From an uncultured Prolixibacteraceae bacterium (GTDB lineage: Bacteria > Bacteroidota > Bacteroidia > Bacteroidales > FEN-979), in contig CAZSDU010000001.1 of assembly GCA_964605775.1 (NCBI GenBank), positions 282,283 to 346,282 of the forward strand: a stretch of 64,000 nucleotides of DNA. Direction: 5' to 3'. Below the pieces are notes generated by a model that worked only from the letters and a program-made list of their open reading frames with translations, was not told where the DNA came from and made no database searches. Shown here piece after piece: positions 6,805 through 49,145 of the stretch. Each line of letters opens with the position of its first letter. Position 1 is the stretch's first letter. Both the position numbers and the translations under genes were made by a program.

Positions 6805-7491
6805 ATGAAAAAGAAAGATATGCTCATCCTATTAGTGGATGATGAGGAGGACATTCTTGAATTTCTCGGTTACAATCTGAGCCGGGAAGGATATCAGGTG
6901 ATGAAAGCCCGGTCAGGAAAAAAAGCGATTAAGCTGGCGATGAAAAACAAACCCCATCTCATCCTGCTGGATGTGATGATGCCTGAAATGGACGGGATCG
7001 AGACCTGTATGGAAATCAGGAAAATCCCTGAACTTTCGAATACCCTGATCGCTTTCCTTACAGCAAGGGGAGAAGATTTTTCCCAGATTGCCGGGTTTGA
7101 AGCAGGCGCCGATGATTATATCAGCAAACCCATCAAACCCAAACTTCTCATCAGCCGGATGCAGGCCATCCTCAGAAGATATAAGGAAGTACCTCCCGAT
7201 AATCCCCTGATCGAACTCAGGGACTTTACCATCGACCGGAATAAATATGTCATCCTCAAAAATGGAGAGGAAATCATCTTTCCCCGCAAGGAGTTTGAAT
7301 TGCTGCAATTCCTGGTCATGCACCCGGGCAAGGTGCTGAACAGGGAAGAAATTTTTTCCGGTGTATGGGGGGATGACGTGGTGGTGGGCGACCGCACCAT
7401 TGATGTTCATATCCGCAGGATCCGTGAAAAACTGGAAACCGATAGCATTAAGACCATCAAAGGGGTGGGCTATAAATTCGAAGAGTCATGA
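6805..7491 (+). CDS. OmpR/PhoB-family response regulator
   Basis: 228 aa. Receiver residues (DDEED, DVMMPEMDG, ISKP) plus a winged-helix C-terminus (TIDVHIRRIREKL, GVGYKF). Confidence 0.92.
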   Translation: MKKKDMLILLVDDEEDILEFLGYNLSREGYQVMKARSGKKAIKLAMKNKPHLILLDVMMPEMDGIETCMEIRKIPELSNTLIAFLTARGEDFSQIAGFEAGADDYISKPIKPKLLISRMQAILRRYKEVPPDNPLIELRDFTIDRNKYVILKNGEEIIFPRKEFELLQFLVMHPGKVLNREEIFSGVWGDDVVVGDRTIDVHIRRIREKLETDSIKTIKGVGYKFEES

Positions 7492-8546
7492 AATTCCATG
7501 ATCCGAAATACCTGGCTCTGCTGAACGCTGTCATTGCCACCGTGATGTACGGCTTTTTGTTCTTTGTTTCGGTCTTCTTCCTTTTCGACACCGGACTGTT
7601 TCACTGGAAGATTTTTCTGACTTTCACCCTTAGCGGGCTGATTATTTTTTCCGTGACCTTCCTTCTTTTTCGTTTTACCATCGACCGGTTTATTTACAGC
7701 AAGATCCGGCTGATCTATAAATCTATCCACAGCGTTAAAACAGCAAAAGAAAACAAACAGCGTTACAGGACCGATGACAACCTGCTGGAGCATGTGCAGG
7801 AGGAAGTGGAACAATGGAAAACGGAAAAGTCGGATGAAATAGAACGACTGACGCAACTGGAGCAGTACCGAAGAGACTTTATCGGGAATGTTTCCCATGA
7901 GCTCAAAACCCCCTTGTTCAATATCCAGGGATATGTTTCTACCCTCCTGGATGGCGGATTGAAAGACCGTACGATTAACAGGGATTACCTGAAGCGTACG
8001 GAAAAAAGCGTGGAACGCCTGATCCGTATCGTAAACGACCTGGATGAAATTGCCCAGTTGGAATCCGGGCAACTGAAGCTGAATGTCATCCGCTTTGACA
8101 TTGTCGCGCTATGCCATGAAGTGGTTGAAATGCTTGAATTGAAAGCCACCAAAAAGGACCTTCAGTTGATCATTCAGGAACCCGATAAAGCCATCTGGGT
8201 GGAAGGCGACAGGGAAAAAATCCGTCAGGTGCTCACCAATATCGTGGATAATTCCATCCGGTATAGCAATCATAAAAACAAAAAGACCAAGATCAGTTTC
8301 TTTGATATGGATGTGCACCTATTGATTGAAGTTACAGACAACGGGATCGGCATTGACCAGGAAGATCTCCCCAGGGTATTTGAACGCTTTTACCGCACAG
8401 AAAGGGGACGGGCTACTACCCGAAAAGGAAAGGGGCTGGGGCTAGCCATTGTCAAACACATTGTGGAAGCACATCAGCAAACGGTACATGTAAGAAGCGC
8501 CATAGGTGTTGGCACTACTTTTGGATTCACCTTGAAAAAAGCCTGA
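7488..8546 (+). CDS. Sensor histidine kinase (HisKA + HATPase_c)
   Basis: 352 aa. Two N-terminal TM helices, H-box SHELKTPL, N-box DNSIRYS, G-boxes DNGIGI and GKGLGLAIV. ATGA overlap with the regulator gene. Confidence 0.92.
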   Translation: MKFHDPKYLALLNAVIATVMYGFLFFVSVFFLFDTGLFHWKIFLTFTLSGLIIFSVTFLLFRFTIDRFIYSKIRLIYKSIHSVKTAKENKQRYRTDDNLLEHVQEEVEQWKTEKSDEIERLTQLEQYRRDFIGNVSHELKTPLFNIQGYVSTLLDGGLKDRTINRDYLKRTEKSVERLIRIVNDLDEIAQLESGQLKLNVIRFDIVALCHEVVEMLELKATKKDLQLIIQEPDKAIWVEGDREKIRQVLTNIVDNSIRYSNHKNKKTKISFFDMDVHLLIEVTDNGIGIDQEDLPRVFERFYRTERGRATTRKGKGLGLAIVKHIVEAHQQTVHVRSAIGVGTTFGFTLKKA

Positions 8547-15643: not shown

Positions 15644-16819
15644 ATGGGAGAAAATCGGAGAAAATCGGCGCTGAACGTGATGGATGGGGTTGAACAACCT
15701 TCACAGATCAATGCCGAGCTGGTGGGTAAACTGAAATCAAAAAGGGTAAAAAAATTATCGGTTGAGGAGTATGTCAACGGTATTTTTTCAGGGAACCGCA
15801 CCATCCTAAGCAAGGCCATTACCCTGGTGGAAAGTTCCCTCCACAAAGACCAGGAAAAGTCCCAGGAAATCATCGATGCCTGTTTGAAACATCAGTCGGC
15901 TGCCGCCCATCGGCAGTCCACTACATCCAACATCCAACATACGGCTCCCCCATTACCTGCTCAATCCTTCCTCAGCCCCCCTTCTTCCTCCATTCGTATC
16001 GGCATCACAGGTGTTCCGGGAGTGGGAAAAAGTACCTTTATCGAAGCCCTGGGAACCCATTTAACGGCTCAGGGCCATAAACTGGCCGTATTAGCCATAG
16101 ATCCCAGCAGTACACTTTCCAAAGGCAGCATACTGGGAGATAAAACCAGGATGGAAGAACTGGCTGTTGATCCGAATGCTTTTATCCGCCCTTCTCCCTC
16201 TGCAGGTTCACTGGGCGGCGTTGCCCGCAAAACCAGGGAAACCATTATTTTATGTGAAGCGGCAGGCTACGATGTGATTTTTGTCGAAACCGTCGGAGTG
16301 GGGCAATCTGAAACTTCTGTTCATGCCATGGTGGACTTCTTTTTATTGCTGATGCTGTCGGGAGCCGGAGATGAATTGCAGGGCATCAAGCGGGGAATTA
16401 TAGAAATGGCAGATGCCATTATCATCAACAAAGCCGATGGAGATAATCTGCTTAAAGCCCAAACGGCCAGGGCAGAGTATGCCCATGCCCTCCATCTTTT
16501 TCCTCCTTCAGCATCCGGCTGGATTCCCGTAGCCGACATCTGTTCGTCCAGAACCAAAATGGGGATAGACAATACCTGGAATATTATCCAGAAGCATCAT
16601 CGCCTGATGTGTGAGAGCGGGTTTTTTATCCATAAAAGAAGGGAACAGAACAAACAGATTCTGATGGAAACAATCCAAGAAGGATTGAAACATCATTTTT
16701 TTTCCCGAAAAGACATCCAGTCTGAACTCCTGATCTTGGAAGAAAAAATTTCCGCGGGAAAAGTCAATCCTTACCAGGCAGCCCAAAAATTACTTGAGAA
16801 ATACTATCATAACAGGTAA
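15644..16819 (+). CDS. meaB: MeaB/ArgK-type G3E GTPase (methylmalonyl-CoA mutase chaperone family)
   Basis: P-loop GITGVPGVGKST, ETVGVGQSE and INKADG blocks. The start could be the internal Met at 15680. A candidate -7 box TACCTTTG lies at 15586-15593. Confidence 0.85.
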   Translation: MGENRRKSALNVMDGVEQPSQINAELVGKLKSKRVKKLSVEEYVNGIFSGNRTILSKAITLVESSLHKDQEKSQEIIDACLKHQSAAAHRQSTTSNIQHTAPPLPAQSFLSPPSSSIRIGITGVPGVGKSTFIEALGTHLTAQGHKLAVLAIDPSSTLSKGSILGDKTRMEELAVDPNAFIRPSPSAGSLGGVARKTRETIILCEAAGYDVIFVETVGVGQSETSVHAMVDFFLLLMLSGAGDELQGIKRGIIEMADAIIINKADGDNLLKAQTARAEYAHALHLFPPSASGWIPVADICSSRTKMGIDNTWNIIQKHHRLMCESGFFIHKRREQNKQILMETIQEGLKHHFFSRKDIQSELLILEEKISAGKVNPYQAAQKLLEKYYHNR

Positions 16820-16839: not shown

Positions 16840-17415
16840 TTACGCTTGCATTGAGTTCAGAAAGTCAGCTATTTCTTCTATCGTCATGATTTTATCCACC
16901 TTATGCGCACGAATGGCGGCCCAAGGCATGGAGTCAACCTCTGCCGTTCCAGGGTCCTGAACAATGGTGGTGCCCCCCATTTCCTTAATCCTTTTTAAGC
17001 CTTTGCTTCCATCGTTATTGGCCCCTGTAAGGATGATGCCGATGAGTTGATCGCGGTACGCGTCTGCTGCGGTTTCAAAGAGGACATCAATGGAAGGTCT
17101 CGCATAATTAACCCTTTCATCGATGGTCAGGGAAAAAGTCCGATCTGGCTCTATCAGTAAATGATAGTTGGGAGGTGCCACATAGGCTTTCCCGGGCTCC
17201 GGTTTTATTTTTTCTTCGGCTTCCATGACTTCGATTTTATGCTGATCATTAAGGATATGTACAAGGTAGTTTTCTGCATCCGGACTGATATGTTGTACAA
17301 TGATCACCGGCAGGCAGAATGATGCGTTCAGCCTCATAAACAATCCCTTTAAGGCATTCAGGCCGCCCGCCGAAGATCCGATCACTACCGCCTGATATTG
17401 ATTTCCTGTATTCAT
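16840..17415 (-). CDS. cheB: CheB-type protein-glutamate methylesterase, catalytic domain only (no receiver domain)
   Basis: 191 aa with the Ser/His/Asp triad contexts GSSAGG, IVQH and ANNDG. Confidence 0.85.
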   Translation of the reverse strand: MNTGNQYQAVVIGSSAGGLNALKGLFMRLNASFCLPVIIVQHISPDAENYLVHILNDQHKIEVMEAEEKIKPEPGKAYVAPPNYHLLIEPDRTFSLTIDERVNYARPSIDVLFETAADAYRDQLIGIILTGANNDGSKGLKRIKEMGGTTIVQDPGTAEVDSMPWAAIRAHKVDKIMTIEEIADFLNSMQA

Positions 17416-18272
17416 GAGGGAAAGGGTGATAGATGATTTTTTTTGATATAGATCTTTTCTTTCCCGTTCAGCGGATCAAAATCAGGATAATGTGACGAAA
17501 ACTGAAGACTTTCTTTTGATCCCAGGCATAGAATGCCACCACCTGGAAGACTGTCCACAAAAAGTTGTATCACCCTGTCCTGCAAATGACGATCAAAATA
17601 GATCAGCACGTTACGGCAAATAACGAGGTTAACTTCTGCAAAGACACTATCGGTCACCAGATTATGGGTGGCAAAAACAATATTTTTTTTCAGTGTTTCC
17701 AGTAATTTTGCTTTTTCATTACTGGCGGTATAATAATCTGAAAAAGATCCTTTTCCTCCTGATTTTTGATAGTTCAGGGTAAAATCTTTCATCCTGCTGA
17801 CGGGGTAAAAACCTTCTTTTGCCTGGCCGATGATCATCGGGTTGAAGTCGGTGGCATATATCTGGGTTTTGTTGTACAGCCCTTCTTCTTTCAGCAAAAT
17901 GGCCATGGAATAGACCTCTTCTCCGCTTGAGCATCCAGCATGCCAAATTTTTATGAATGAGAATTTCCTGATCAAAGGGATGACCTCTTCCCGTAAGGAT
18001 TTATAAAACAGGGGATCCCGGAACATTTCGGTAACAGTGATGGAAAGATCCATGAGTAACAAATCAACAAATTTCGGGTTGTAGATGACCTCATGGATCA
18101 TTTCAGAGATCGTTTTCAATCCTGAATGCGCAAAGCGGTTCAGAATTCTTCTTTTGATATGAGCCTGGGAGTAATGGCGAAAATCATATCCGTATTTTTC
18201 AAAGATAGCCTCTTCTACAAGCCGGATTTCTATATCCTGGTTTTCGAGGAATTCTTCCTGTTTTTTTTTCAT
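17412..18272 (-). CDS. cheR: CheR-type SAM-dependent protein-glutamate O-methyltransferase
   Basis: 286 aa. TEMFRDP block and the SAM-binding WHAGCSSGEEVYS block. ATGA overlaps on both sides. Confidence 0.9.
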   Translation of the reverse strand: MKKKQEEFLENQDIEIRLVEEAIFEKYGYDFRHYSQAHIKRRILNRFAHSGLKTISEMIHEVIYNPKFVDLLLMDLSITVTEMFRDPLFYKSLREEVIPLIRKFSFIKIWHAGCSSGEEVYSMAILLKEEGLYNKTQIYATDFNPMIIGQAKEGFYPVSRMKDFTLNYQKSGGKGSFSDYYTASNEKAKLLETLKKNIVFATHNLVTDSVFAEVNLVICRNVLIYFDRHLQDRVIQLFVDSLPGGGILCLGSKESLQFSSHYPDFDPLNGKEKIYIKKNHLSPFPS

Positions 18273-19339
18273 CCGGGACTATGGGGCTTTTTGACGATCA
18301 GATTCCGAATGGCTGAAGCCAGAATACTGAGCGCAAGAATGGAAGCAATGATGATCAGGGAATGATTGGTAGATATTCTTGCTACATCATGGATCAGCAT
18401 TTTCACACCCACGAAAGTAAGCAATACCGCCAGCCCGATCTTAAGATAATGAAAGCGGTTCATGACATCCATGATCAGGAAGAAAAGAGAACGCAAACCC
18501 AGAATGGCAAAAATATTGGAGAAAAACACAATATACGGGTCCTGGGTAACAGAAAAAACAGCGGGGACGGAGTCGATAGCAAAGAGAACATCAGTGAATT
18601 CAATGATCATCAGAACGATGAACAAATGAGTGACATAGCGCTTATTGTTTTTTCGGATAAAAAAAGTGTCTGCGTGGCTGTCATGACTGACCCTGAAAAA
18701 GCGGGCCACCAGCTTGACAACAAAATGATTTTCGGTATCAATGTGTTCTTCCTTTTTGGAAATCAGAAATTCATACGCCATTTTTAACCCAATGACCACC
18801 AGTAAGCCCCCGAAAACATAAAGAAACCATGCAAAACGCTGGATCAATGCGCTGGCGGCAAAAATAAAGGCAAACCGCATCACCATGGCGCCAAGAATGC
18901 CCCAGAATAATATCCTTTTAAAGTTTTTGGGGGCAATTTTGAAAGAAAAGAAGATCATGATAATCACAAAAACATTGTCCACCGAAAGGGAATATTCGAT
19001 AAGGTAACCCGTCAGGTATTCCAGGGAAAGGTTTTTATTATAGACATCTATGGCCTGCTGGAGGGTCAATCCATCGATCCTGATGGGATGTTTATACGTT
19101 TGGATGCGCATCTGCAACTCTTCCAGGGTATCACTTCCATGAATCCAGTTTCCGTGGTAGCGGATTAAAAAATAAAACGCTAAGGAAATTCCCACCCACA
19201 GCATCGTCCAGGCCAGAGATTCCCTGAATGACAAGGCATGACTTTTTTTCTGGAAGATGCCAAGGTCCATCAAAAGCATCGACAGTATAAAGACGATGAA
19301 GGCAGAGAAAAAAACAATTTCATTCAGGTTTAAGGACAT
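18269..19339 (-). CDS. TerC/Alx-family integral membrane protein
   Basis: 356 aa, multi-TM, with the duplicated signature EYSLSVDNVFV and EFTDVLFAIDSVPAV. Confidence 0.88.
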   Translation of the reverse strand: MSLNLNEIVFFSAFIVFILSMLLMDLGIFQKKSHALSFRESLAWTMLWVGISLAFYFLIRYHGNWIHGSDTLEELQMRIQTYKHPIRIDGLTLQQAIDVYNKNLSLEYLTGYLIEYSLSVDNVFVIIMIFFSFKIAPKNFKRILFWGILGAMVMRFAFIFAASALIQRFAWFLYVFGGLLVVIGLKMAYEFLISKKEEHIDTENHFVVKLVARFFRVSHDSHADTFFIRKNNKRYVTHLFIVLMIIEFTDVLFAIDSVPAVFSVTQDPYIVFFSNIFAILGLRSLFFLIMDVMNRFHYLKIGLAVLLTFVGVKMLIHDVARISTNHSLIIIASILALSILASAIRNLIVKKPHSPG

Positions 19340-19386
19340 GTATCGTTAAGGGATTTGGATTATTGCTCAAAATTAAGAATATTTAG

Positions 19387-19394
19387 TATTTTTG
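19387..19394 (+). promoter_or_regulatory. Candidate -7 box TATTTTTG for the glutamine synthetase family gene
   Basis: TAnnTTTG match 33 nt upstream of the ATG at 19428. It overlaps the track's TTG start at 19392, which argues against that start. Confidence 0.4.
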
Positions 19395-19427
19395 TCCATT
19401 AATCAATGTTTCATCTCATTTACCATC

Positions 19428-20933
19428 ATGAACGAATCCTTGTCACTTAACCCCAACCCGCTGATAAAATTTCTTGACAAGCCCTCATCTGATTTCCGTA
19501 AAGCAGATCTGATCCGTTTTATTGAAGCCCATGGGATACAGATGATCAATTTCCGCTATTCCGCCGCGGATAGCCGGCTGAAGACCCTGAATTTCATCAT
19601 CAAAGACCGGCATCACCTCGACAGCATCCTGAGTGCCGGAGAAAGGGTGGATGGATCCAGTCTGTTTCCGAATTATATAGAGGCCGGTTCTTCTGATCTT
19701 TATGTCATCCCCAGATACCGTACAGCATTCGTCAATCCTTTCTCGGAAATACCGGCAATAGATATCTTATGCTCCTATTATGATAAAGACGGATCACCCT
19801 TTCATAATTCTCCGGAGTACATCATGCGTAAGTCGCATGAGGTACTGAAACAAAAGACCGGATATGATTTTGAAGTAATGGGAGAGCTGGAATATTATAT
19901 TATCAGTCCGGAAGATCAATTGTTTCATGCCGTTGATCAGAGGGGATATCATGAATCCTCTCCCTTTTGTAAATGGGAAAAACTCCGGATCGAAGCAATG
20001 CGTGCGATCGGACAATGCGGCGGATTCATCAAGTACGGTCATTCTGAAGTCGGGAATTTCTCAGAGTCAGGCTATTCTTATGAACAGAATGAAATTGAGT
20101 TTACCCCTGTTGCCCTCGAGGAGGCTGCCGATCAATTGATGATCACCAAGTGGATATTACGTTCTCTGGCTTATAAACATGGTGTTACCGTAACTTTTGC
20201 ACCGAAAATTACCACAGGCAAAGCCGGAAGCGGTTTACACGTACATACCCGGCTCATGAAAGACGGCCATAGCGTGATGCTGAATGACGGAACATTATCC
20301 GATACCGCCAAAAAAGCCATTGCCGGTTATCTTGATCTATCCCAATCGCTTACTGCTTTTGGAAATATGATCCCGACCAGCTACTTCCGCCTGGTTCCCC
20401 ACCAGGAAGCCCCCACAAACATTTGCTGGGGCGACCGTAACCGTTCCGTGCTGGTTCGCGTTCCCCTCGGATGGGGAAGCAAACACAGTATGATCACCGA
20501 TGCCAATCCGGAAGAACATGATACCCAGGAAGGTTTTGGCAGCCGTCAAACCGTTGAATTCAGATGCCCTGACGGTTCTGCAGACATTTACCTGCTGTTT
20601 GCCGGGTTGACCGTAGCTGCCCGTCATGGGCTTGAAATGGACAATGCCCTTGAATTAGCCAGACAAACCTATGTCGATGTCAATATTTTTGAAGAAAAAT
20701 ACAAATCCAGGGTAAACCAGTTGAAACAACTTCCCTGTTCCTGTGTCCAATCCGCTGAATTCCTTGAAAAACAACGGGCAATCTATGAAGCCCATGAGGT
20801 CTTCCCGCATAAAATCATCGACGGACTGATCTGTTACCTGAAAGGGTTCAATGACCAGCAACTCAGAGAATCCATCAAAAATAATGAAGAGGAGATTATG
20901 AAACTGGTCGGGAAGTATTTACACTGCGGATAA
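19428..20933 (+). CDS. Glutamine synthetase family protein (about 500-aa type)
   Basis: GSGLHVHTRL, DRNRSVLVRVP and VEFRCPDGSADIYLLFAG blocks match GS catalytic-domain signatures. Confidence 0.8.
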   Translation: MNESLSLNPNPLIKFLDKPSSDFRKADLIRFIEAHGIQMINFRYSAADSRLKTLNFIIKDRHHLDSILSAGERVDGSSLFPNYIEAGSSDLYVIPRYRTAFVNPFSEIPAIDILCSYYDKDGSPFHNSPEYIMRKSHEVLKQKTGYDFEVMGELEYYIISPEDQLFHAVDQRGYHESSPFCKWEKLRIEAMRAIGQCGGFIKYGHSEVGNFSESGYSYEQNEIEFTPVALEEAADQLMITKWILRSLAYKHGVTVTFAPKITTGKAGSGLHVHTRLMKDGHSVMLNDGTLSDTAKKAIAGYLDLSQSLTAFGNMIPTSYFRLVPHQEAPTNICWGDRNRSVLVRVPLGWGSKHSMITDANPEEHDTQEGFGSRQTVEFRCPDGSADIYLLFAGLTVAARHGLEMDNALELARQTYVDVNIFEEKYKSRVNQLKQLPCSCVQSAEFLEKQRAIYEAHEVFPHKIIDGLICYLKGFNDQQLRESIKNNEEEIMKLVGKYLHCG

Positions 20934-40995: not shown

Positions 40996-42930
40996 TTATT
41001 CAATGGTCAGTTCAAAAATTTCTCCCAAGATATCATTTTTCGGAAAAGGAATATTATCCTGGGCATAAGGAGATCCTATCCACCACTTGGTATTATGGAA
41101 TTCCTGGGTAATAATCAGCAACATCTGATTGTTGGGCACGGAAGTCACTTTATCGTCCTCATATCCCACGACCCGGAGTTTTTCTTTCGAAGGGCCGATC
41201 CTCCATATAATTCGATCGGGCTGCCAGTCGATCTGAAAATAATAAAAGTCGGATCCGAAAAGTTCATCATCACTTTCCAGTGATTTTTCGGTCAAAGCCC
41301 GGTAATTTTTATCCCAGCGGTGAGCCCAGAAAGTATTGCCTTCAAAATTCACCGGCCAGCATCCATCATGGAAATCAGACGGTTGCCAGCAGGCCATGTC
41401 CCAGTTAGTACAAGCTACGATGATTTTATCGTCATTGGCCGTAATTTCTTCGGGGAATGGCACGTTCCAGCCTGACAGCCGAAACTGATCGTCGTTCCCA
41501 TGGTTATACGCCGGTGGAAGTACCCAGGAGGGACAGTATGGAACGGTTTTCAGGATTTCAAAATCGATTTCAGAATATCCGACATTTTTAATTCTTTGAT
41601 CCTGATGTCCACCGTAATAATTGGCCATATATCCGCCGTTGTTGCAATCCCGTCTCAGGTTCCAGTCACCCTGGTCCATGGTGAGCAGCCAGATCGCATT
41701 GGTGATACCATTCCACATATGATTTTCATTCAGCAATTCGGTGAGTTTTGCCTTGACTGTCCATTTCCCGTAGGTCATCCCATGACGCGTGATAATACCT
41801 ACATTTTGTTTCTGCCATTTCCCAAATTCAGCTTTAGGGTTACGGATGGAAATTTTATGGTTGACCGGATCAGAAATGACCGTTTCACAGGGACGGGCAG
41901 CTGTTGTAGCCGTCACGGAAATCAGCTCTTCCTTGCGGTAAAACCTTTTATTCCAATTGTAATCCAGCCTTGAGTAATGATCTTTCAGCACATCTGCAAT
42001 CACCGGGATATGATCCATTTTTGTCGAGGGATCAACATAGTGGATGAACTGCTCAAAGGCTGCATTTTTATACAGGGCAGAATCCTGGCCACAGAGATCA
42101 TTTCCGTATTGATCGGCAATCTCCTTGCTGAAATTATTCGGATTGATATAAATCCCTCCGCCCAGGTCGGGTTTAGCCATCACCTGAAGCTGACCGGGAT
42201 ACTCCTGGACTACGGTATTGTGAAGCCTGCATCCATCCCCGTACTTAAAATAAAAATAGGGGTTTATAAAACCCTCAGGGGATTGTAAGCCGATGTTTTG
42301 AATATAATCAGGGATGCGTTTTTCGCCCATGGTTTCAGCCACGGTCACCACCAGTAAAAAACTATATTTGCCAACCCTGGGGTTTCTTTTCCAGCGGTCA
42401 TTTTTCCCGTTCAGGTAATAACGTTGTTCATCCCTTGGATTGCCAACGATCCTGAACTTGTTTGTAATCTTATGAAATTGATCATCGGCAGGAATAACAT
42501 CCGTTTTTAACATGGTAGTCGCTACATTTTCCCAGCTTCCGTAAAAATTTTCCCAGGCATAAGGATGCTGTTTTGCTGTGTCCTGATCAGACCTTTCATG
42601 AAATTTATAGGATTCATTCTGGTAATAAATTTTATAATAAAATTCTGCTGCCTCTTTTCCGGTATTTTTTATACTGAACTCCAGGTCAAAAAAACCATCT
42701 GCCGTTTGACGGGATGAGGGAATGACAAACCCATTTCCCTTGGCGCCTGAATAATCGAGGAACAATGGCTTTCCGGTATTCCAGTTGGTCAGAGGGTTAA
42801 AATCTCTGATGATAAACTGATCCGTAACCACCTGGGCAGCGTTGGGATTCTGATTACAGCCGGAATGTATTCCTGTCATCAGCAATATCCCCATGAGTAT
42901 CAATGTCAAGTTCATTTTCATTCGGTTCAT
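40996..42930 (-). CDS. Lipoprotein with C-terminal GH16-like (concanavalin-fold glucanase) domain
   Basis: 644 aa. Lipobox GIHSGC. NAIWLL, GYSEIDFEILK (ExDxE at nt 41557-41571) and YYFQIDWQPDRIIWRIG match GH16 hallmarks. The N-terminal ~370 aa are unassigned. Confidence 0.6.
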   Translation of the reverse strand: MNRMKMNLTLILMGILLMTGIHSGCNQNPNAAQVVTDQFIIRDFNPLTNWNTGKPLFLDYSGAKGNGFVIPSSRQTADGFFDLEFSIKNTGKEAAEFYYKIYYQNESYKFHERSDQDTAKQHPYAWENFYGSWENVATTMLKTDVIPADDQFHKITNKFRIVGNPRDEQRYYLNGKNDRWKRNPRVGKYSFLLVVTVAETMGEKRIPDYIQNIGLQSPEGFINPYFYFKYGDGCRLHNTVVQEYPGQLQVMAKPDLGGGIYINPNNFSKEIADQYGNDLCGQDSALYKNAAFEQFIHYVDPSTKMDHIPVIADVLKDHYSRLDYNWNKRFYRKEELISVTATTAARPCETVISDPVNHKISIRNPKAEFGKWQKQNVGIITRHGMTYGKWTVKAKLTELLNENHMWNGITNAIWLLTMDQGDWNLRRDCNNGGYMANYYGGHQDQRIKNVGYSEIDFEILKTVPYCPSWVLPPAYNHGNDDQFRLSGWNVPFPEEITANDDKIIVACTNWDMACWQPSDFHDGCWPVNFEGNTFWAHRWDKNYRALTEKSLESDDELFGSDFYYFQIDWQPDRIIWRIGPSKEKLRVVGYEDDKVTSVPNNQMLLIITQEFHNTKWWIGSPYAQDNIPFPKNDILGEIFELTIE

Positions 42931-44714
42931 TTTTGAGGAAATGAATATAATTCCATAACATCCGGAAGTTCTGTTGTTTCTTCTTTATTCGAACCCAGGA
43001 TAAAGTAAGTGGTATTCCCCTTAACGGTATATTTTCCGGGAATTATCCGGAGTGATTCATAGTACTTTGGGTTATGATCCTGATTAAAACCATGAAAATC
43101 GACATTGGCCTGAATCTGAAAAGCAGTATCATTAAATTTCAGTTGTTTCAGGTCGAACCGCCAGTCGCGGTTATAGCGTAATATCATCCGGCCCTGTCCG
43201 GGGTCTGAGGCTGAAGTAAAAAAACGATCCGTTGGTTTCAGGGTGTCAAGTCCAATGGTTTTCCCAAAATATTCATATTTTTTAGGATATTTCGATTCAA
43301 ATTTTCCGCTGCTTGCATGATACCAACGAAGGGAATAATCGGATTTTCCGGTCTTTTTATTTTTCACGACCGACAGGATGACATCCAGGTCTGGATCGGA
43401 GAGAAAATGATCCACGGATAAGCCGATTTCGAAAACTGAACTGTCCCATTCCCTGACCGGATTCCGGTCGCCTTCGGCCAGGATTTTCCAGGAGTCCTTT
43501 TTAGCCTGGTCAAATTGCAGCATTTTCCAATATCCATGATCCATCAGCAAGAGCAATTCGCTGATTCCATCCTGATTAAAATCTCCGGGAAAAACCCATT
43601 GATTATCCTTCATATAAATCCCCGACAGCTTTTTATCGAAAGACTGCCAGACCATATTAAAAATGATTTCTGTTTCTGAAGCACAGGGGTCTTTGCTGTT
43701 GGTAAGCTTACCCAGCATCAACCCATTTTCAGAAGCCATGAGCAGTTGTTCTCCCTGGCCGGCCAAAAATTTTCCCTTCCAGATATTGCCGGATGTAAAA
43801 AAAGGCAAGGCTGCTGACGGGATATGGAAAGGAATTTTCCGAATCTCGATTGAATTCGCACAGAATGATAAAAGGAATGGCTTTGATCCTTGTGGGATAA
43901 GCAGCAACTCCTCCAAACGCTTTTGATCAATAAGAAAATCACCGGAAATGATTTTGTCAAGGGGGGAAATTTCCTTCATTTTTTTCCAGCTTTGAACCCT
44001 TTCAAGCGCTACCGTGGGAAATGGCGGATAGTTAAAGCGGGGAGTAAAGGAGGTTTCTTTCGTCATGTCCACGAAAACGGTATCTCCACGCCGGTCAGGC
44101 TGACTTCCGAAGACCATATTATAATCATCCACGAGAATATCCGTCGGACTGTTATTCCAGAAATAAATTTTCAGTTTATATTCAGGTTTGAATTGTACTT
44201 CACTGAGGTCGAGTTTCCCGCTGATTTTAAACCATTTCCCGCGTGGAATTCCCTTACCGGACAATCCGACCCCTTTCCAGCAGATATTCACGCCCAATTC
44301 GTTTGAAGCTGCCAGAACAAAAGTAGCATTGACTTCCTTGGTTGTTGGGAAAACATAAACCCAGGTACTGAGGGAAACTTCTTTCAGGTTTTCCATTCCT
44401 AGCTCTCTGGCAGTACGCTCAATCGCCGCGCCAAAACTGTTTTGCCCGAAAGCTTTGGCCGAAAAGAGACCAGAATGAGCTATTCCTTTATAAAAACCAT
44501 CGGGTGTTGCTTTCCCGGGATCCACTTCAAAATCAAAATACAGGCTATGAGGCGCCTGAGCATGGATTTTTTGAGAATTGAGAAATTCTTTTTCGGAAGA
44601 GGAAGGAATACTGACCACTTTGTTCAAGGGAAAATATTTCAGACCAAGTGCGACAGCAATAATGCTAATGGTCATGGTGGCAGCGATGGCAATTAACCAT
44701 TTCTTTTTTTTCAT
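42927..44714 (-). CDS. Membrane-anchored hypothetical protein with CBM-like beta-sandwich and FG-GAP/VCBS-like motif
   Basis: 595 aa. N-terminal TM anchor, a sandwich-like region ending ...DILVDDYNMVFG, and an FPGDFNQDGISELLLL motif. ATGA overlap with the GH16-like gene. Confidence 0.5.
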   Translation of the reverse strand: MKKKKWLIAIAATMTISIIAVALGLKYFPLNKVVSIPSSSEKEFLNSQKIHAQAPHSLYFDFEVDPGKATPDGFYKGIAHSGLFSAKAFGQNSFGAAIERTARELGMENLKEVSLSTWVYVFPTTKEVNATFVLAASNELGVNICWKGVGLSGKGIPRGKWFKISGKLDLSEVQFKPEYKLKIYFWNNSPTDILVDDYNMVFGSQPDRRGDTVFVDMTKETSFTPRFNYPPFPTVALERVQSWKKMKEISPLDKIISGDFLIDQKRLEELLLIPQGSKPFLLSFCANSIEIRKIPFHIPSAALPFFTSGNIWKGKFLAGQGEQLLMASENGLMLGKLTNSKDPCASETEIIFNMVWQSFDKKLSGIYMKDNQWVFPGDFNQDGISELLLLMDHGYWKMLQFDQAKKDSWKILAEGDRNPVREWDSSVFEIGLSVDHFLSDPDLDVILSVVKNKKTGKSDYSLRWYHASSGKFESKYPKKYEYFGKTIGLDTLKPTDRFFTSASDPGQGRMILRYNRDWRFDLKQLKFNDTAFQIQANVDFHGFNQDHNPKYYESLRIIPGKYTVKGNTTYFILGSNKEETTELPDVMELYSFPQK

Positions 44715-44723
44715 GATATCAGG

Positions 44724-47700
44724 TTAGTGTATGCAAATCATACTTTTTGTTTCTGAATGATCTGCAGTTATCATCCGGCAGGAATAAATTCCGGCAGGGA
44801 TGTTATTCCCCGATTCATCCGTCCCATCCCAAAAGAGAAGATGATCTCCTGCATTTTCTTTGTTCTGATGAAATGTGCGGATTCTGACACCCTGGGCATT
44901 AAATATTTCAAAGGTAATCTCTTCCTGCTTTGCTAATTTATATTGAATATGGGTTGAAGATATAAACGGATTGGGATAATTACCCTTTAAAAAAGTCAAT
45001 CCATTTGTATTGGGGGAACCCGAGGAGATCGGAAAGGGAATATGCATTAATACCGGTAAGACTGCCTGGTTGTTAAAATTATCATGTACAATAATATTAC
45101 AGTAATAATCGCCGGGAGGCAGGTTGTCGGGTTGAAAAGTAAGATTTACTTCTGCCGTTTCATTCCTATACAAACTACCTGAAATATCAGATAAGGATAG
45201 CCAGTTATTCCATAATCCGGAATTTTTAATTCGGATAAACCCGAACTTATCATGTGGGGTATTACCTGTTTGATCACCATGAATATTATAGACTAGGAAA
45301 ACGTCGTATTGGTATGACAGATTAATCGTTCCGCTTAGGGTGGAAACGGCTGACTCTCCTGGTTTCACAACCCCGGAACCACTGCTTGTTTCTCCATGCC
45401 AGTTTTGAGGAAGCCCTGTACCTGGCGTTCCTTGGTATACCAGGTTTCCCAGGGATCCTCCTGTAAAATCTGTTGCTGTATTAAGTTCCACCCCGGGAGG
45501 AAAATCAACTTTGACATGGCTTACATTTTCGTTGTCACTACTCTGGTTGTGTAAAATCAAATCCCAGCTGTACAAGTTTCCAGGTACAAAATATTCGCTT
45601 GAGCATATAAGATTTGAGTTTGACTGATTGGAAGGATACCAGGCTTTGTTATTGGCCAGGGTATCAAAAACCATGGTTGAAAAATTCAGTATTCCACCAC
45701 CATCATTCGTGATAGAAAAATGATCTGTTGAAGTTTGTCCTATTTCCAGTGTTTTTTCAAACATCTTCGGAAAAACAGCTATAACTGGTTGTGCACCTGC
45801 AATGAGGGGAAACTGAATAAAATCCAGAAAAGCACAATCGTATCCATTGCTAACAGAATAATCTTTATGATAAGTCCAGTTGAAGGTGTGATATCCTTTC
45901 TCAATAGGAAAAGAAACCTGGCTCCAGTCTCCTTCGCCATCCCATCTTTGCATTTCAAAATTATCAATAGAGAAGGCCAGATAGTCGTAATTGAATGTTC
46001 CGGCAGGATCGTGTTCACAGGAAACTTTTTTCCAAAAACTTAATATTCCATCTTCCAGGACGCAAACACTTAAAAATAAAGTCGATTCCTGATCATCAAA
46101 GATCCATCCGGAGCGTCCTGAATAATTTCCCTCATACCTGATTACTGGATCAAATCCCCATGGGGCAGCACCCGAAAAATTCCAGTCGAATTTATTGTAA
46201 GTGGCTGTTTCAAAATCTTCGATGATATCGCCGGAATACAGAAAAAGGCTATCCGAGGTATTGAGGTTCTGACTTGTTTGAAGGAAAGTATTCATTTTGT
46301 AAAGGTGTTCGAATGGAACTGTGGAAGAAGCGGTAACATGAAAGAGAATATTATTGGAAGAATCCGGTTTAAGCATAGAAAGAAATCCGGTATCCACGTC
46401 AATGGTCAGGTTGGTATCGGCTGCTATAAGTGTGACATGAATGCCGGAAGCTGAAACACTTCCATTATTTTTCAAGGTTACAAGCAGATCAGCAGATTCT
46501 CCCGGATCAAGCCGGTGGTTGTCGCCATCATCCAGTTCGACTTTTGAAAAATGAAATTCCGGGGCGAAAGCGACCAGATGAATATCAATGTTGCTGTTCT
46601 GTTGCGCTGTTATCATATTCATTGGGATGATAAACAGATGATTGTTTGGGATATCAGGAGAAATCAGCATCCCGAATGCATGGGGAATGGTCAGGGTCTG
46701 ACTTCCGTTAACCACAGGAACGATTATACTAGCATTGAGTAAGGTAACATAGGGGTCAGAATTTGTGATGGAAACCTGAATATTACTTACTGGCTGTGAG
46801 CTAAGATTGGTAAGGGAAAGATTAAGATAAGCCGTTTCTCCATATTCAATAATGCTATCATTTCCTGACTCAACCTGATAGCCTATAAGCAGGCCATTAG
46901 TATTAAACAATAAGGTCTTCGTGGAAGAAATATTGTCATTATCAGTGACTACGAAATTCACTGCTGTATTCTGGTATGGCAGGGTAGGTGTACCTGTAAA
47001 CAGACCATCTTCCGTAACCATCATCTCAGCAGGATAACCGCAGGAAGCAAACTGGTCCAGGGTATTGGGTGCGATGGCAGATGAATTGTTCAGGGCAGTA
47101 AACTGATAGTTTTTATTATCTCCTGAAGAAATACCCCCTGTCCAGGCAGTATTTGCCGGATAGACCATATCTCCGTAATAGAATTCTATTTTCCCGTTTG
47201 AATAAAATTTTACAGCAAAATTCAGGTTTGTGGATGACGTTCCGGTGATGAAAGTTTTCCAGCGTATCGTTGCTGATGTCGAATTTCCTTCATACCAGAT
47301 TCCTTGTCCCTGTGAAGGATTAATATACATATCGGTCATAAACGGGGCAACGATTGCGGATTGCCGGAAGAGTAGCGATTTGTCAATTAGATAAGGCCAG
47401 GTATAGGGCTGATCATCGAATAAAATATACCCATCAGCATAAATGTACAGTTTATTTATGTTTTTCTTAAAAAAGGGGAAATTAAAGTCCAGCAATTTTA
47501 TTGCAAAACCTGTATTGTTATTGGTCAGGATCAGTTGTTGTGCATTGACAGCAGGGAAAGATGCAGTGGTAATGGTTTCCGGATAATTCAGCCGGGCATC
47601 CCAACGATAGGGGGGGGTGCCATTATTTGCTGTAAGTTGAAAATTATATGGCTGGTAAAGCATTGCAGGCGGAAGGCTGCCCGACACGATGGCTGGTTTA

Positions 47701-49145
47701 TTGAAATTCACGGTATGATTAAGTCCCAGCCGTGTCATCGTATTATTCCCGATCAGAATATTTGTGCCAGAGTAAACATTGTATAAGGGGGACCCGGAAG
47801 TATAATCTATCAATGACCAGCCAACAATTGTTCCTGATGCCACATTGCCCGGATCGTTCTCCTGAACCTGAAGGAAGAATCTGGCAGGTTGTCCGCTGCT
47901 CAACTGTGAAAGCAAGGGTGTCAGGTCAAGTCCGAATTCAATGGTTTTATCGGCTTCTGAAGTTCCTCCCTGCATATAATAATCTCCCCCCTGATAATTA
48001 AAAACCGGAAAATCAAGAACCGTTGAAGGCAGGGTGGCACTAAGATCCGTATTCATTCCCACATTCACTTTCAGTTTATTTCGCGAGGTATGATTGAGGG
48101 TTATTTTCATTGTCAGTTTCGGATCGCATGATTGCTTGACATCAATCACATAGATGGTATGATTCCATATTCCCCCATACCCAATATTATCAGCAATGTT
48201 TTTATACATGGTATAGCAGAATCCCTGATTACACCATCCGGGACCCGCATAACCATTGGCGAATTTTAATCCTCCTATTTCCCAATCATGCATGTCAACG
48301 GCTCCATCCCCGTTGATATCAATGTTGTTGGTATATTTCCCGTCCCCGTTAAAATCATACCGGACAGAGTCATTGTATCCGCAGATGGTCCAGGCGTGTG
48401 AAGGACTGCCGCCCCAGTAGGTCTGAACATATTTCCCGGCTTCAGGAGTACCGGCAGGTAATACCGCTGAGGGGGTACTGAAATAGTTGCCATAAATATT
48501 TCCCACTCCGCCCACTACTGAACCATTCAGATGTTCGGCTAACCAGTATTTCAAGGTAAGCAATCCTTCCGGACTGTCGGCCCTGATGGCACTCACCGTA
48601 TTCAATCGGTTTTTCATGCCATTGTAATACTTATCATAACCTGAAATCCAGCGTAAATAACCACCGGTGTTCAATGCTCCGCCATAATCCGTAACATTCA
48701 TGGTGCCACAGGTTTTAATAATTTCCCAGGAGTCAAAAAAACTGACACCCTGATAATTGTTGGCATTGTTTAAGAAATCCCAGGCAAAATGCGTTGGATA
48801 TTGATTATTGGTGACATTGGCAGGTACATTGCGTAACCTGTCCACCTCATACGTGAAATTAAAAGCAATACTTGCCGATTGCCCGCATTCATAGCCAGAT
48901 TGATAGGTAATCGGACGAAAAAAAGGCTGGGAAGAGTTATCCACACTTTGAGGCAGTAAGGGAGCATAAGGACCTTTATAATGTTCAGGAAGATTGAGAA
49001 TGGGAATGTTGGAAAGGACAAAAAGCTCATCAGGAGTCAGGGAAAAAGGTTCAAGACCTTGCTGTGCCGGAAGGTCCTGTGCCTGAAGACCCATAAAAAG
49101 AAAAGACAACAAGGAGGTTATTCCGATGACAATGAGCTTCTTCAT
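44724..49145 (-). CDS. Giant T9SS-secreted multidomain protein with N-terminal papain-like cysteine peptidase domain
   Basis: 1473 aa. Signal peptide; Cys context YQSGYECGQSASIAF, His context SHAWTICGYND, FANGYAGPGW block. Dockerin/EF-hand-like DxNxDG repeats, Ig-like and CARDB-like regions, and a MAM-like sandwich. The C-terminal ~85 aa (NYPNPF...GIYSCRM...) match the T9SS sorting-domain pattern. Confidence 0.8.
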   Translation of the reverse strand: MKKLIVIGITSLLSFLFMGLQAQDLPAQQGLEPFSLTPDELFVLSNIPILNLPEHYKGPYAPLLPQSVDNSSQPFFRPITYQSGYECGQSASIAFNFTYEVDRLRNVPANVTNNQYPTHFAWDFLNNANNYQGVSFFDSWEIIKTCGTMNVTDYGGALNTGGYLRWISGYDKYYNGMKNRLNTVSAIRADSPEGLLTLKYWLAEHLNGSVVGGVGNIYGNYFSTPSAVLPAGTPEAGKYVQTYWGGSPSHAWTICGYNDSVRYDFNGDGKYTNNIDINGDGAVDMHDWEIGGLKFANGYAGPGWCNQGFCYTMYKNIADNIGYGGIWNHTIYVIDVKQSCDPKLTMKITLNHTSRNKLKVNVGMNTDLSATLPSTVLDFPVFNYQGGDYYMQGGTSEADKTIEFGLDLTPLLSQLSSGQPARFFLQVQENDPGNVASGTIVGWSLIDYTSGSPLYNVYSGTNILIGNNTMTRLGLNHTVNFNKPAIVSGSLPPAMLYQPYNFQLTANNGTPPYRWDARLNYPETITTASFPAVNAQQLILTNNNTGFAIKLLDFNFPFFKKNINKLYIYADGYILFDDQPYTWPYLIDKSLLFRQSAIVAPFMTDMYINPSQGQGIWYEGNSTSATIRWKTFITGTSSTNLNFAVKFYSNGKIEFYYGDMVYPANTAWTGGISSGDNKNYQFTALNNSSAIAPNTLDQFASCGYPAEMMVTEDGLFTGTPTLPYQNTAVNFVVTDNDNISSTKTLLFNTNGLLIGYQVESGNDSIIEYGETAYLNLSLTNLSSQPVSNIQVSITNSDPYVTLLNASIIVPVVNGSQTLTIPHAFGMLISPDIPNNHLFIIPMNMITAQQNSNIDIHLVAFAPEFHFSKVELDDGDNHRLDPGESADLLVTLKNNGSVSASGIHVTLIAADTNLTIDVDTGFLSMLKPDSSNNILFHVTASSTVPFEHLYKMNTFLQTSQNLNTSDSLFLYSGDIIEDFETATYNKFDWNFSGAAPWGFDPVIRYEGNYSGRSGWIFDDQESTLFLSVCVLEDGILSFWKKVSCEHDPAGTFNYDYLAFSIDNFEMQRWDGEGDWSQVSFPIEKGYHTFNWTYHKDYSVSNGYDCAFLDFIQFPLIAGAQPVIAVFPKMFEKTLEIGQTSTDHFSITNDGGGILNFSTMVFDTLANNKAWYPSNQSNSNLICSSEYFVPGNLYSWDLILHNQSSDNENVSHVKVDFPPGVELNTATDFTGGSLGNLVYQGTPGTGLPQNWHGETSSGSGVVKPGESAVSTLSGTINLSYQYDVFLVYNIHGDQTGNTPHDKFGFIRIKNSGLWNNWLSLSDISGSLYRNETAEVNLTFQPDNLPPGDYYCNIIVHDNFNNQAVLPVLMHIPFPISSGSPNTNGLTFLKGNYPNPFISSTHIQYKLAKQEEITFEIFNAQGVRIRTFHQNKENAGDHLLFWDGTDESGNNIPAGIYSCRMITADHSETKSMICIH

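Follow-up and report, generated by a model that had tools for sequence, protein, structure and literature searches.

The closest described counterpart of the system considered here is found in Bacillus cereus. There, the CheR-like methyltransferase RsbM acts on the hybrid kinase RsbK by methylating its signaling helix, which represses kinase output (PMC4574943). RsbK has the architecture CHASE3, HAMP, GAF, S-helix, HK, CA, and REC, and RsbM has been described as an orphan methyltransferase, with no esterase of its own (PMC4574943). A total of 127 RsbK-like kinases in 10 phyla is cited in the same paper (PMC4574943), and the genomic association of RsbK with CheR has been attributed to de Been and colleagues (PMC12848376). 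Here, we analyze a three-gene operon, terC-cheR-cheB, in a 64,000-nucleotide stretch of the genome of an uncultured Prolixibacteraceae bacterium (assembly GCA_964605775.1, contig CAZSDU010000001.1, positions 282,283 to 346,282; hereafter, the window). On the basis of homology and gene order, we interpret the locus as a reduced example of CheR-type methylation of RsbK-like hybrid kinases, here accompanied by CheB.

The likeness to RsbK and RsbM, as judged by architecture and the published description, is threefold. A CheR-family methyltransferase is tied to a hybrid kinase instead of a methyl-accepting chemotaxis protein (MCP); the kinases of the relatives combine CHASE3 or another sensor with HAMP, GAF, a long helix, HisKA, HATPase, and receiver (REC) domains; and their helix carries conserved Glu/Gln pairs. 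Unlike the B. cereus system, the window locus lacks a kinase and possesses a dedicated receiver-less CheB esterase, the kinases of the relatives have three REC domains and a second REC-HK-REC partner, and there is no sigma-B partner-switching output. With the CheR and CheB of Escherichia coli and Salmonella chemotaxis, the window enzymes share both catalytic folds, the Ser-His-Asp triad of CheB, and the key residues and FR motif of CheR; however, the window CheB has no N-terminal receiver, and neither the window nor 80 related loci contain an MCP, CheA, or CheW gene. Another instance of CheB and CheR domains connected to a histidine-kinase pathway instead of MCPs is provided by the CheB-CheR fusion sensor kinases (P0197, JGI name "two-component system CheB/CheR fusion protein"). 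In contrast to these fusions, the window enzymes are separate small proteins, and the partner in the relatives is a separate GAF-type hybrid kinase. Literature searches on CheR/CheB with Bacteroidetes or Flavobacterium hybrid kinases returned nothing specific.

In the mechanism that we propose, cheR and cheB would constitute the methylation and demethylation half of a two-component system organized around a large RsbK-like hybrid kinase, and would not belong to chemotaxis. The full cassette consists, in order, of the hybrid kinase, CheR, a receiver-less CheB, and a second protein with REC-HisKA-HATPase-REC architecture. CheR would methylate conserved Glu/Gln pairs on a signaling helix of ~100 amino acids between the GAF domain and the phospho-accepting His, CheB would demethylate or deamidate the same pairs, and these modifications would tune the output of the kinase. 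Within the clade of the window, the cassette lies directly 3' of terC in a tightly packed arrangement, and in the lineage of the window both kinase genes appear to have been lost from the locus, leaving terC-cheR-cheB with translationally coupled junctions. We estimate a probability of roughly 0.6 that the substrate is a signaling-helix kinase encoded elsewhere in the genome, with CheR and CheB acting in trans.

Gene order in relatives provides evidence for this reading. Species-representative genomes were scanned with an alignment (A1) of CheR matches, and at least 592 matches were confirmed by tblastn. The best 80 of these loci, with CheR identities of 57–80% to that of the window, were retrieved for gene order. 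They were split into the 22 closest (CheR at least 70% identical; Bacteroidales/Prolixibacteraceae metagenome-assembled genomes, or MAGs) and 58 more distant loci from Lentimicrobiaceae, Chitinophagaceae, and Flavobacterium and from MAGs labeled Calditrichota, Desulfobacterales, Thiomargarita, and Ignavibacteria. A kinase lies beside cheR-cheB in 50 of the distant loci and in 8 of the closest. Six of the eight distant loci without a kinase are on contigs too short for the flank, and only two (L054 and L072) have flanks of 3 kb or more on each side. No MCP signaling domain, CheW, or true CheA was found within 10 kb in any of the 80 loci, the only matches to Tar or CheA being HAMP and HATPase regions of hybrid kinases.

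Among the 22 closest loci, synteny runs from a glutamine synthetase (GS)-family gene through terC and cheR-cheB to a convergent meaB. In 14 of them terC stands directly before cheR, and in 6 a histidine kinase (HK) gene encoding 1,421–1,481 amino acids is interposed (terC-HK-cheR); the remaining two are cut by a contig end and have a kinase upstream of cheR. Most of the 22 also have a gene for a ~530-amino-acid protein 3' of cheB. Independent gene calls with Pfam assignments revealed complete cassettes in abundant relatives from the clade (L091/L092 and L095/L096), in which terC-HK(1434)-cheR-cheB-(REC-HK-REC) abuts a convergent meaB. By the same means, a cassette of CHASE3-HAMP-GAF-HK-REC, REC, CheR, CheB, and REC was found in L097, the cassette was also confirmed in L098 (Bacteroidota), and Paenibacillus mucilaginosus (CP035456.1; L100) was found to encode NIT-HAMP-GAF-HK-REC, CheR, a 191-amino-acid CheB, and REC-HK. 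A protein-database search with the kinase of locus L012 listed none from the contigs of the window or its closest relative; this search also missed the known L091 and L095 orthologs and is therefore given no weight. P0144, a kinase on a 3.97-Mb contig, was set aside, as it belongs to a different organism with its own cassette.

The large neighbor of cheR-cheB in the distant loci is a hybrid histidine kinase of 1,100–1,480 amino acids with a sensor, HAMP, GAF, a long signaling helix, HisKA, HATPase, and three REC domains. For example, the L012 kinase contains a weakly matched dCache_1, HAMP (residues 342–391), GAF (498–632), HisKA (739–806), HATPase_c, and three REC domains, and that of Flavobacterium limicola contains CHASE3, GAF, HisKA, HATPase_c, and three REC domains. 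The ~530-amino-acid partner protein has the domain order REC-HisKA-HATPase-REC. Between GAF and HisKA, 58 kinases have in common a strongly conserved helix with the consensus AEELQVQQEELRQaNEELEEQTkALKeSEenLQaQQEELRVTNEELEERT. In the profile, it runs from AEELQVQQEELRQaNEELEEQT to QQEELRVTNEELEERT and is followed by KYKSEFLANMSHELRTP; the helix ends ~35 residues before this H-box. The columns of its repeated QQEE and EE.EE(Q) motifs are at least 80% Glu/Gln across the 58 kinases. From these pairs and the RsbK precedent, we infer that the helix is the site methylated by CheR. A profile built from the helix recovers 59 large kinase open reading frames (ORFs) in the retrieved loci.

Several further observations on the kinases were made. 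The conserved helix spans ~50 residues (L012:7700-7850, protein residues 655–705), with equivalents in the 58 kinases of loci L010–L084, and is common to kinases of Bacteroidota and of MAGs labeled Calditrichota and Desulfobacterales. Flavobacterium-type kinases have two 7-residue deletions in the helix and retain the heptad register. In a Marinilabiliales MAG (L046:2394-6635), the kinase adjoining cheR-cheB is represented by two ORFs, of 585 and 764 amino acids. The break could stem from a frameshift, pseudogenization, or faulty assembly, and the kinase might even be in the course of being lost. In two Flavobacterium loci, a large CheB-CheR fusion is encoded ~7 kb downstream of the cassette with separate cheR and cheB genes (L070:18002-20824 and L082:17877-20816). 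The helix profile weakly matches both fusions (E ~1e-4), so that two methylation modules share one neighborhood in these genomes. The kinases terminate in RVWLY[KR]. A role for this terminus as a CheR-tethering pentapeptide was weighed and, on inspection, dropped: the sequence departs from xWxxF and resembles the closing part of the last REC domain.

The kinase-linked enzymes are orthologs of the window CheR and CheB: the CheR identities are in the range given above, and in a tree the window sequences are nested inside the clade. CheR matches PF01739, the S-adenosylmethionine (SAM) domain, with 143 bits and the all-alpha CheR_N domain (PF03705) with 34.6 bits. The sole domain found in CheB is CheB_methylest (199.7 bits); as it alone spans residues 10–186 of 191, the protein lacks a receiver domain, and it aligns only to residues 158–334 of E. 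coli CheB. CheR and CheB are 24% and 32% identical, respectively, to their E. coli counterparts. Neither protein reaches the cut-off of the corresponding NCBIfam chemotaxis model: CheR scores 72.6 bits against 435 for NF007902 (equivalog), and CheB scores 158 bits against 342 for NF009206 (subfamily). The catalytic residues are in place, with R42, D142, and Y225 of CheR aligning with E. coli R53, D154, and Y235 and the CheB triad S15/H42/D135 aligning with S164/H190/D286, and the FR motif with the invariant R85 is present in the CheR translation. When positions at least 97% conserved among kinase-linked homologs were taken as family-conserved, the window retained 73 of 75 in CheR and 32 of 33 in CheB. 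The N-termini of CheR (MKKKQEEFLE...) and CheB (MNTGNQYQAV...) are polar, with no hydrophobic stretch suggestive of a signal peptide, which suggests that both enzymes are cytoplasmic.

Selection on the pair was assessed through non-synonymous divergence (dN) relative to neighboring housekeeping genes, since synonymous divergence (dS) is saturated and dN/dS ratios are mostly not computable. In comparisons of the window with L085, L006, and L009, dN is low throughout; against L085, it is 0.080 for cheR, 0.082 for the GS-family gene, and 0.17 for cheB. Both genes are thus under strong purifying selection. As the catalytic residues are intact, dN is low, and the conserved positions are kept, the two enzymes are taken to be still functional, with no sign of a switch in substrate type. 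The window CheR is also highly conserved among uncultured Bacteroidales; its best 120 database matches are 61–99% identical.

The minimal form, in which terC-cheR-cheB abuts meaB with no kinase genes, is represented by five loci, namely the window, L085, L006, L009, and L093. Among these, L085 has a CheR 87% identical to that of the window and lies on contigs of 1.78 and 3.55 Mb. One and the same syntenic block occurs both with and without kinases, and several genomes of the clade have a kinase between terC and cheR. The terC-cheR junction of the window thus seems to have arisen through the loss of kinase genes, and the window locus looks like a reduced form of the cassette, with neither kinase gene. 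In a neighbor-joining tree of CheR and CheB, kinase-containing loci are nested among kinase-less ones, and the outgroups have HK-cheR-cheB without terC. An ancestral operon of terC-HK-cheR-cheB-(REC-HK-REC) with several losses is the simplest reading of this topology, although short internal branches leave the count of losses uncertain.

The operon opens with the gene for a TerC/Alx-family membrane protein of metal homeostasis (Pfam TerC, E 3.8e-49) that exceeds the cut-off of the TerC/Alx subfamily model TIGR03718 (338.2 versus 246.4 bits), and its orthologs in the clade, at 55–82% identity, occupy the same operon position. The protein resembles Mn2+ exporters such as E. coli Alx (PMC10197570) in this match, in a multi-helix hydropathy pattern, and in the acidic motifs VDNVF and AIDSVP (corresponding to Alx D92 and D222), which are readable in the translation. 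Unlike Alx, it has a loop ~37 residues longer between transmembrane helices (TM) 2 and 3, has no yybP-ykoY element upstream, and heads an operon with signaling genes. The insertion is present in all of the clade orthologs examined, with or without a kinase. Alx has nine helices with an N-out/C-in orientation, as predicted by several tools and AlphaFold (PMC10197570), and in a crude hydropathy segmentation of the window TerC the loop is flanked by hydrophobic segments, in line with the multi-helix layout of Alx. Since it lies between TM2 and TM3, the loop is predicted to be periplasmic under this topology. Its EE/QQ pairs, TLEELQ and TLQQAI, are not conserved (orthologs have TLAAIQ, SAEAVA, or GLEDAI), nor is KKEEH in a cytoplasmic loop.

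The region 5' of terC was also inspected. An Rfam scan of the window at gathering thresholds returned only a tRNA and no yybP-ykoY (Mn2+) riboswitch, and a permissive scan of positions 19200–19700 gave no yybP-ykoY match at E values up to 10. The divergent intergenic space between terC and the GS-family gene (window 19340–19427) measures 52–88 nucleotides, and the name of the TIGR03718 model, R_switched_Alx, implies a riboswitch. A weak candidate for the operon promoter, TAATTTTG, was located by pattern; as its motif, TAnnTTTG, has ~0.44 occurrences per kb on each strand of the window, the match may be due to chance.

These results bear on an earlier reading of the same DNA. The first-pass annotation had described three minus-strand genes joined by ATGA overlaps, which are directly visible in the sequence, and had named their products as a TerC/Alx protein, a full CheR, and a receiver-less CheB between meaB and a GS-family gene, in agreement with the Pfam and NCBIfam matches. 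It had further stated that no MCP, CheA, CheW, or CheY gene lies in the window, and tblastn with E. coli Tar, Tap, CheA, CheW, CheY, CheZ, MotA, and MotB over the 64 kb bore this out: no chemotaxis genes other than cheR and cheB were found, and a stand-alone CheY is absent. The insertion that it noticed in TerC is real. Its suggestion of a non-MCP substrate is also the most likely one, given that this subfamily is almost always found beside a GAF/signaling-helix hybrid kinase and never beside MCP, CheA, or CheW genes in the relatives. Regarding the identity of this substrate, the annotation had offered two options. A sensor kinase encoded elsewhere emerges from the linkage in relatives as the best candidate, whereas TerC or its loop is disfavored by the clade-limited adjacency, the periplasmic placement of the loop, its unconserved pairs, and the lack of a helix match. 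Conservation of the terC adjacency in relatives had been put forward as a test; the adjacency is limited to one Bacteroidales/Prolixibacteraceae clade, with terC within 10 kb of cheR-cheB in 0 of the 58 distant loci, a result that largely refutes the TerC proposal.

In trans action on a kinase encoded elsewhere in the genome is most likely, yet several observations count against it. No signaling-helix kinase is present in the window, where the helix profile run against all reading frames gave a best E value of 5.6, and none lies within 8–10 kb on either side in L085, L006, L009, or L093. Methylation has been demonstrated for no kinase of this Bacteroidota family, and the kinase helix fails the strict MCP methylation consensus. 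Moreover, terC heads the operon throughout the clade and sometimes overlaps the kinase start, so that a functional link between TerC and signaling is possible, and the several apparent kinase losses in which cheR-cheB were kept would equally fit another substrate. Such a substrate, neither a kinase nor TerC, could have been acquired by the pair in the kinase-less lineages or could always have been available to it; the repeated loss of adjacent kinases alongside strong retention of cheR-cheB would be explained, and no candidate substrate is found in the 64 kb. We consider this unlikely, as no positive evidence speaks for it and CheR and CheB have not diverged from their kinase-linked homologs at conserved positions. 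It is also unnecessary, because two loci (L030 and L034) carry two tandem kinase paralogs and extra kinase copies elsewhere are thus plausible. A stronger version, in which the kinase-losing lineages have no signaling-helix kinase at all and CheR/CheB, under purifying selection and coupled in translation to terC, reversibly methylate a non-kinase target (perhaps TerC on a cytoplasmic side, or a different protein of the membrane), is in our judgment decidedly improbable; if true, regulation of a transporter by glutamate methylation of the CheR/CheB type would have its first example.

The TerC protein itself could be the substrate if CheR and CheB reversibly methylated its Glu residues, for instance in the inserted loop, and thereby tuned metal export. 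The tight coupling of terC-cheR-cheB by ATGA overlaps, the leading position of terC in every member of the clade, and the purifying selection on cheR-cheB where both kinases have been lost are all in keeping with this idea. We nonetheless give it very little credence: terC is missing within 10 kb in the distant loci, sister genomes have a kinase between terC and cheR, the loop is predicted to be periplasmic and the enzymes have no signal-peptide-like stretch, neither the loop pairs nor KKEEH is conserved, the kinase-helix profile finds no match in TerC at E values up to 100, and the window CheR is unshifted at family-conserved positions. As the locus looks like the leftover of a kinase-linked cassette whose kinase genes are gone, TerC is probably a co-transcribed neighbor, a bystander rather than the substrate, and its place at the operon head in the clade may simply mark the insertion site of the cassette. 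A canonical MCP/CheA/CheW pathway elsewhere in the genome, controlling gliding or pili, for example, would suit the CheR and CheB domain content, and a CheB without a receiver is known in some true chemosensory classes (PMC9239204); our view of this genome is limited to the window. Such a pathway is nevertheless a poor prospect in light of the linkage to hybrid kinases in place of MCP, CheW, and true CheA genes across the 80 loci, the scores far under the chemotaxis cut-offs, and the low identity to the E. coli enzymes. Finally, the pair might be a non-functional relic awaiting decay after kinase deletion, given that both cassette kinase genes are gone from the locus and that its gene content varies across the clade. 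This notion is barely credible in view of the intact ORFs and catalytic residues, a cheR dN as low as that of the GS-family gene at saturated dS, the retention of nearly all family-conserved residues, and the occurrence of the kinase-less state in at least 14 species-level genomes without pseudogenization.

Taken alone, the locus is of modest importance, since it represents a known type of system in reduced form. The kinase-CheR-CheB cassette, with its strongly conserved double EE/QE helix, is, by the count of confirmed CheR matches, widespread and little studied; most of its occurrences are in non-flagellated Bacteroidota, with others in Firmicutes and in MAGs labeled Calditrichota, Desulfobacterales, and Thiomargarita. 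As far as the literature searches showed, experimental study has been confined to the esterase-less RsbK/RsbM of B. cereus. The kinase-less operons offer a natural experiment on whether the enzymes act in trans or on other substrates. For annotation, cheR and cheB in such genomes are not evidence of chemotaxis. The features of the locus are collected in Table 1.

Table 1. Features of the terC-cheR-cheB locus and its flanks (window positions).
Feature	Position	Strand	Description	Basis
terC/alx	18269..19339	-	356 aa, first gene of the operon	Pfam TerC, TIGR03718
TerC loop TM2-TM3	19010..19153	-	Residues ~63-110	Alignment with E. coli Alx and 20 clade orthologs
cheR	17412..18272	-	286 aa, SAM-dependent protein-glutamate O-methyltransferase, kinase-linked subfamily	CheR_N, CheR
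cheB	16840..17415	-	191 aa, stand-alone methylesterase/deamidase catalytic domain	CheB_methylest
ATGA overlap	18269..18272	-	terC stop/cheR start	Direct sequence reading
ATGA overlap	17412..17415	-	cheR stop/cheB start	Direct sequence reading
TAATTTTG	19368..19375	-	Candidate operon promoter (weak), 29 nt 5' of terC ATG	Pattern scan, Bacteroidota -7 consensus TAnnTTTG
meaB	15644..16819	+	Convergent flank, conserved downstream edge of syntenic block	MeaB 323 bits; NF006958 460 bits
GS-family gene	19392..20933	+	Divergent flank, conserved upstream edge	Gln-synt_C 186.7 bits

Both flanking genes are constant features of the clade. Wherever the contig of a clade locus runs beyond cheB, meaB is found in this position, and the GS-family gene keeps its place in 18 of the 22 clade loci and in the other contigs retrieved for the clade. 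The MeaB protein has an N-terminal extension of ~110 residues, part of which is of low complexity and rich in Ser and Pro (HRQSTTSNIQHTAPPLPAQSFLSPPSSS); alignment to the curated MeaB model falls into two pieces, the better of which starts at residue 110. The GS-family protein scores 215 bits against the GlnA equivalog, far under the cut-off of 429, and may therefore differ from a standard glutamine synthetase. For its gene, the TTG listed as the start is probably wrong, and an ATG at position 19428 gives MNESLSL....

Elsewhere in the window, the remaining tblastn similarity to the chemotaxis queries was generic, to a classical OmpR-type regulator and a small kinase at positions 6805–8546. A 1,473-amino-acid ORF (44724–49145) was examined as a possible kinase and ruled out, being a cargo protein of the type IX secretion system (T9SS). 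Within the region 40996–49145 on the minus strand, this protein carries an Ig-like domain of the FlgD type and weakly matches the T9SS C-terminal sorting domain, below the cut-off (24.9 versus 27 bits), and ORFs of 595 and 644 amino acids downstream on the same strand have no Pfam match. An 838-amino-acid ORF on the minus strand (54068–56584) consists of MurF-like Mur ligase middle and C-terminal domains fused to a complete alanine racemase (Ala_racemase_N and _C).

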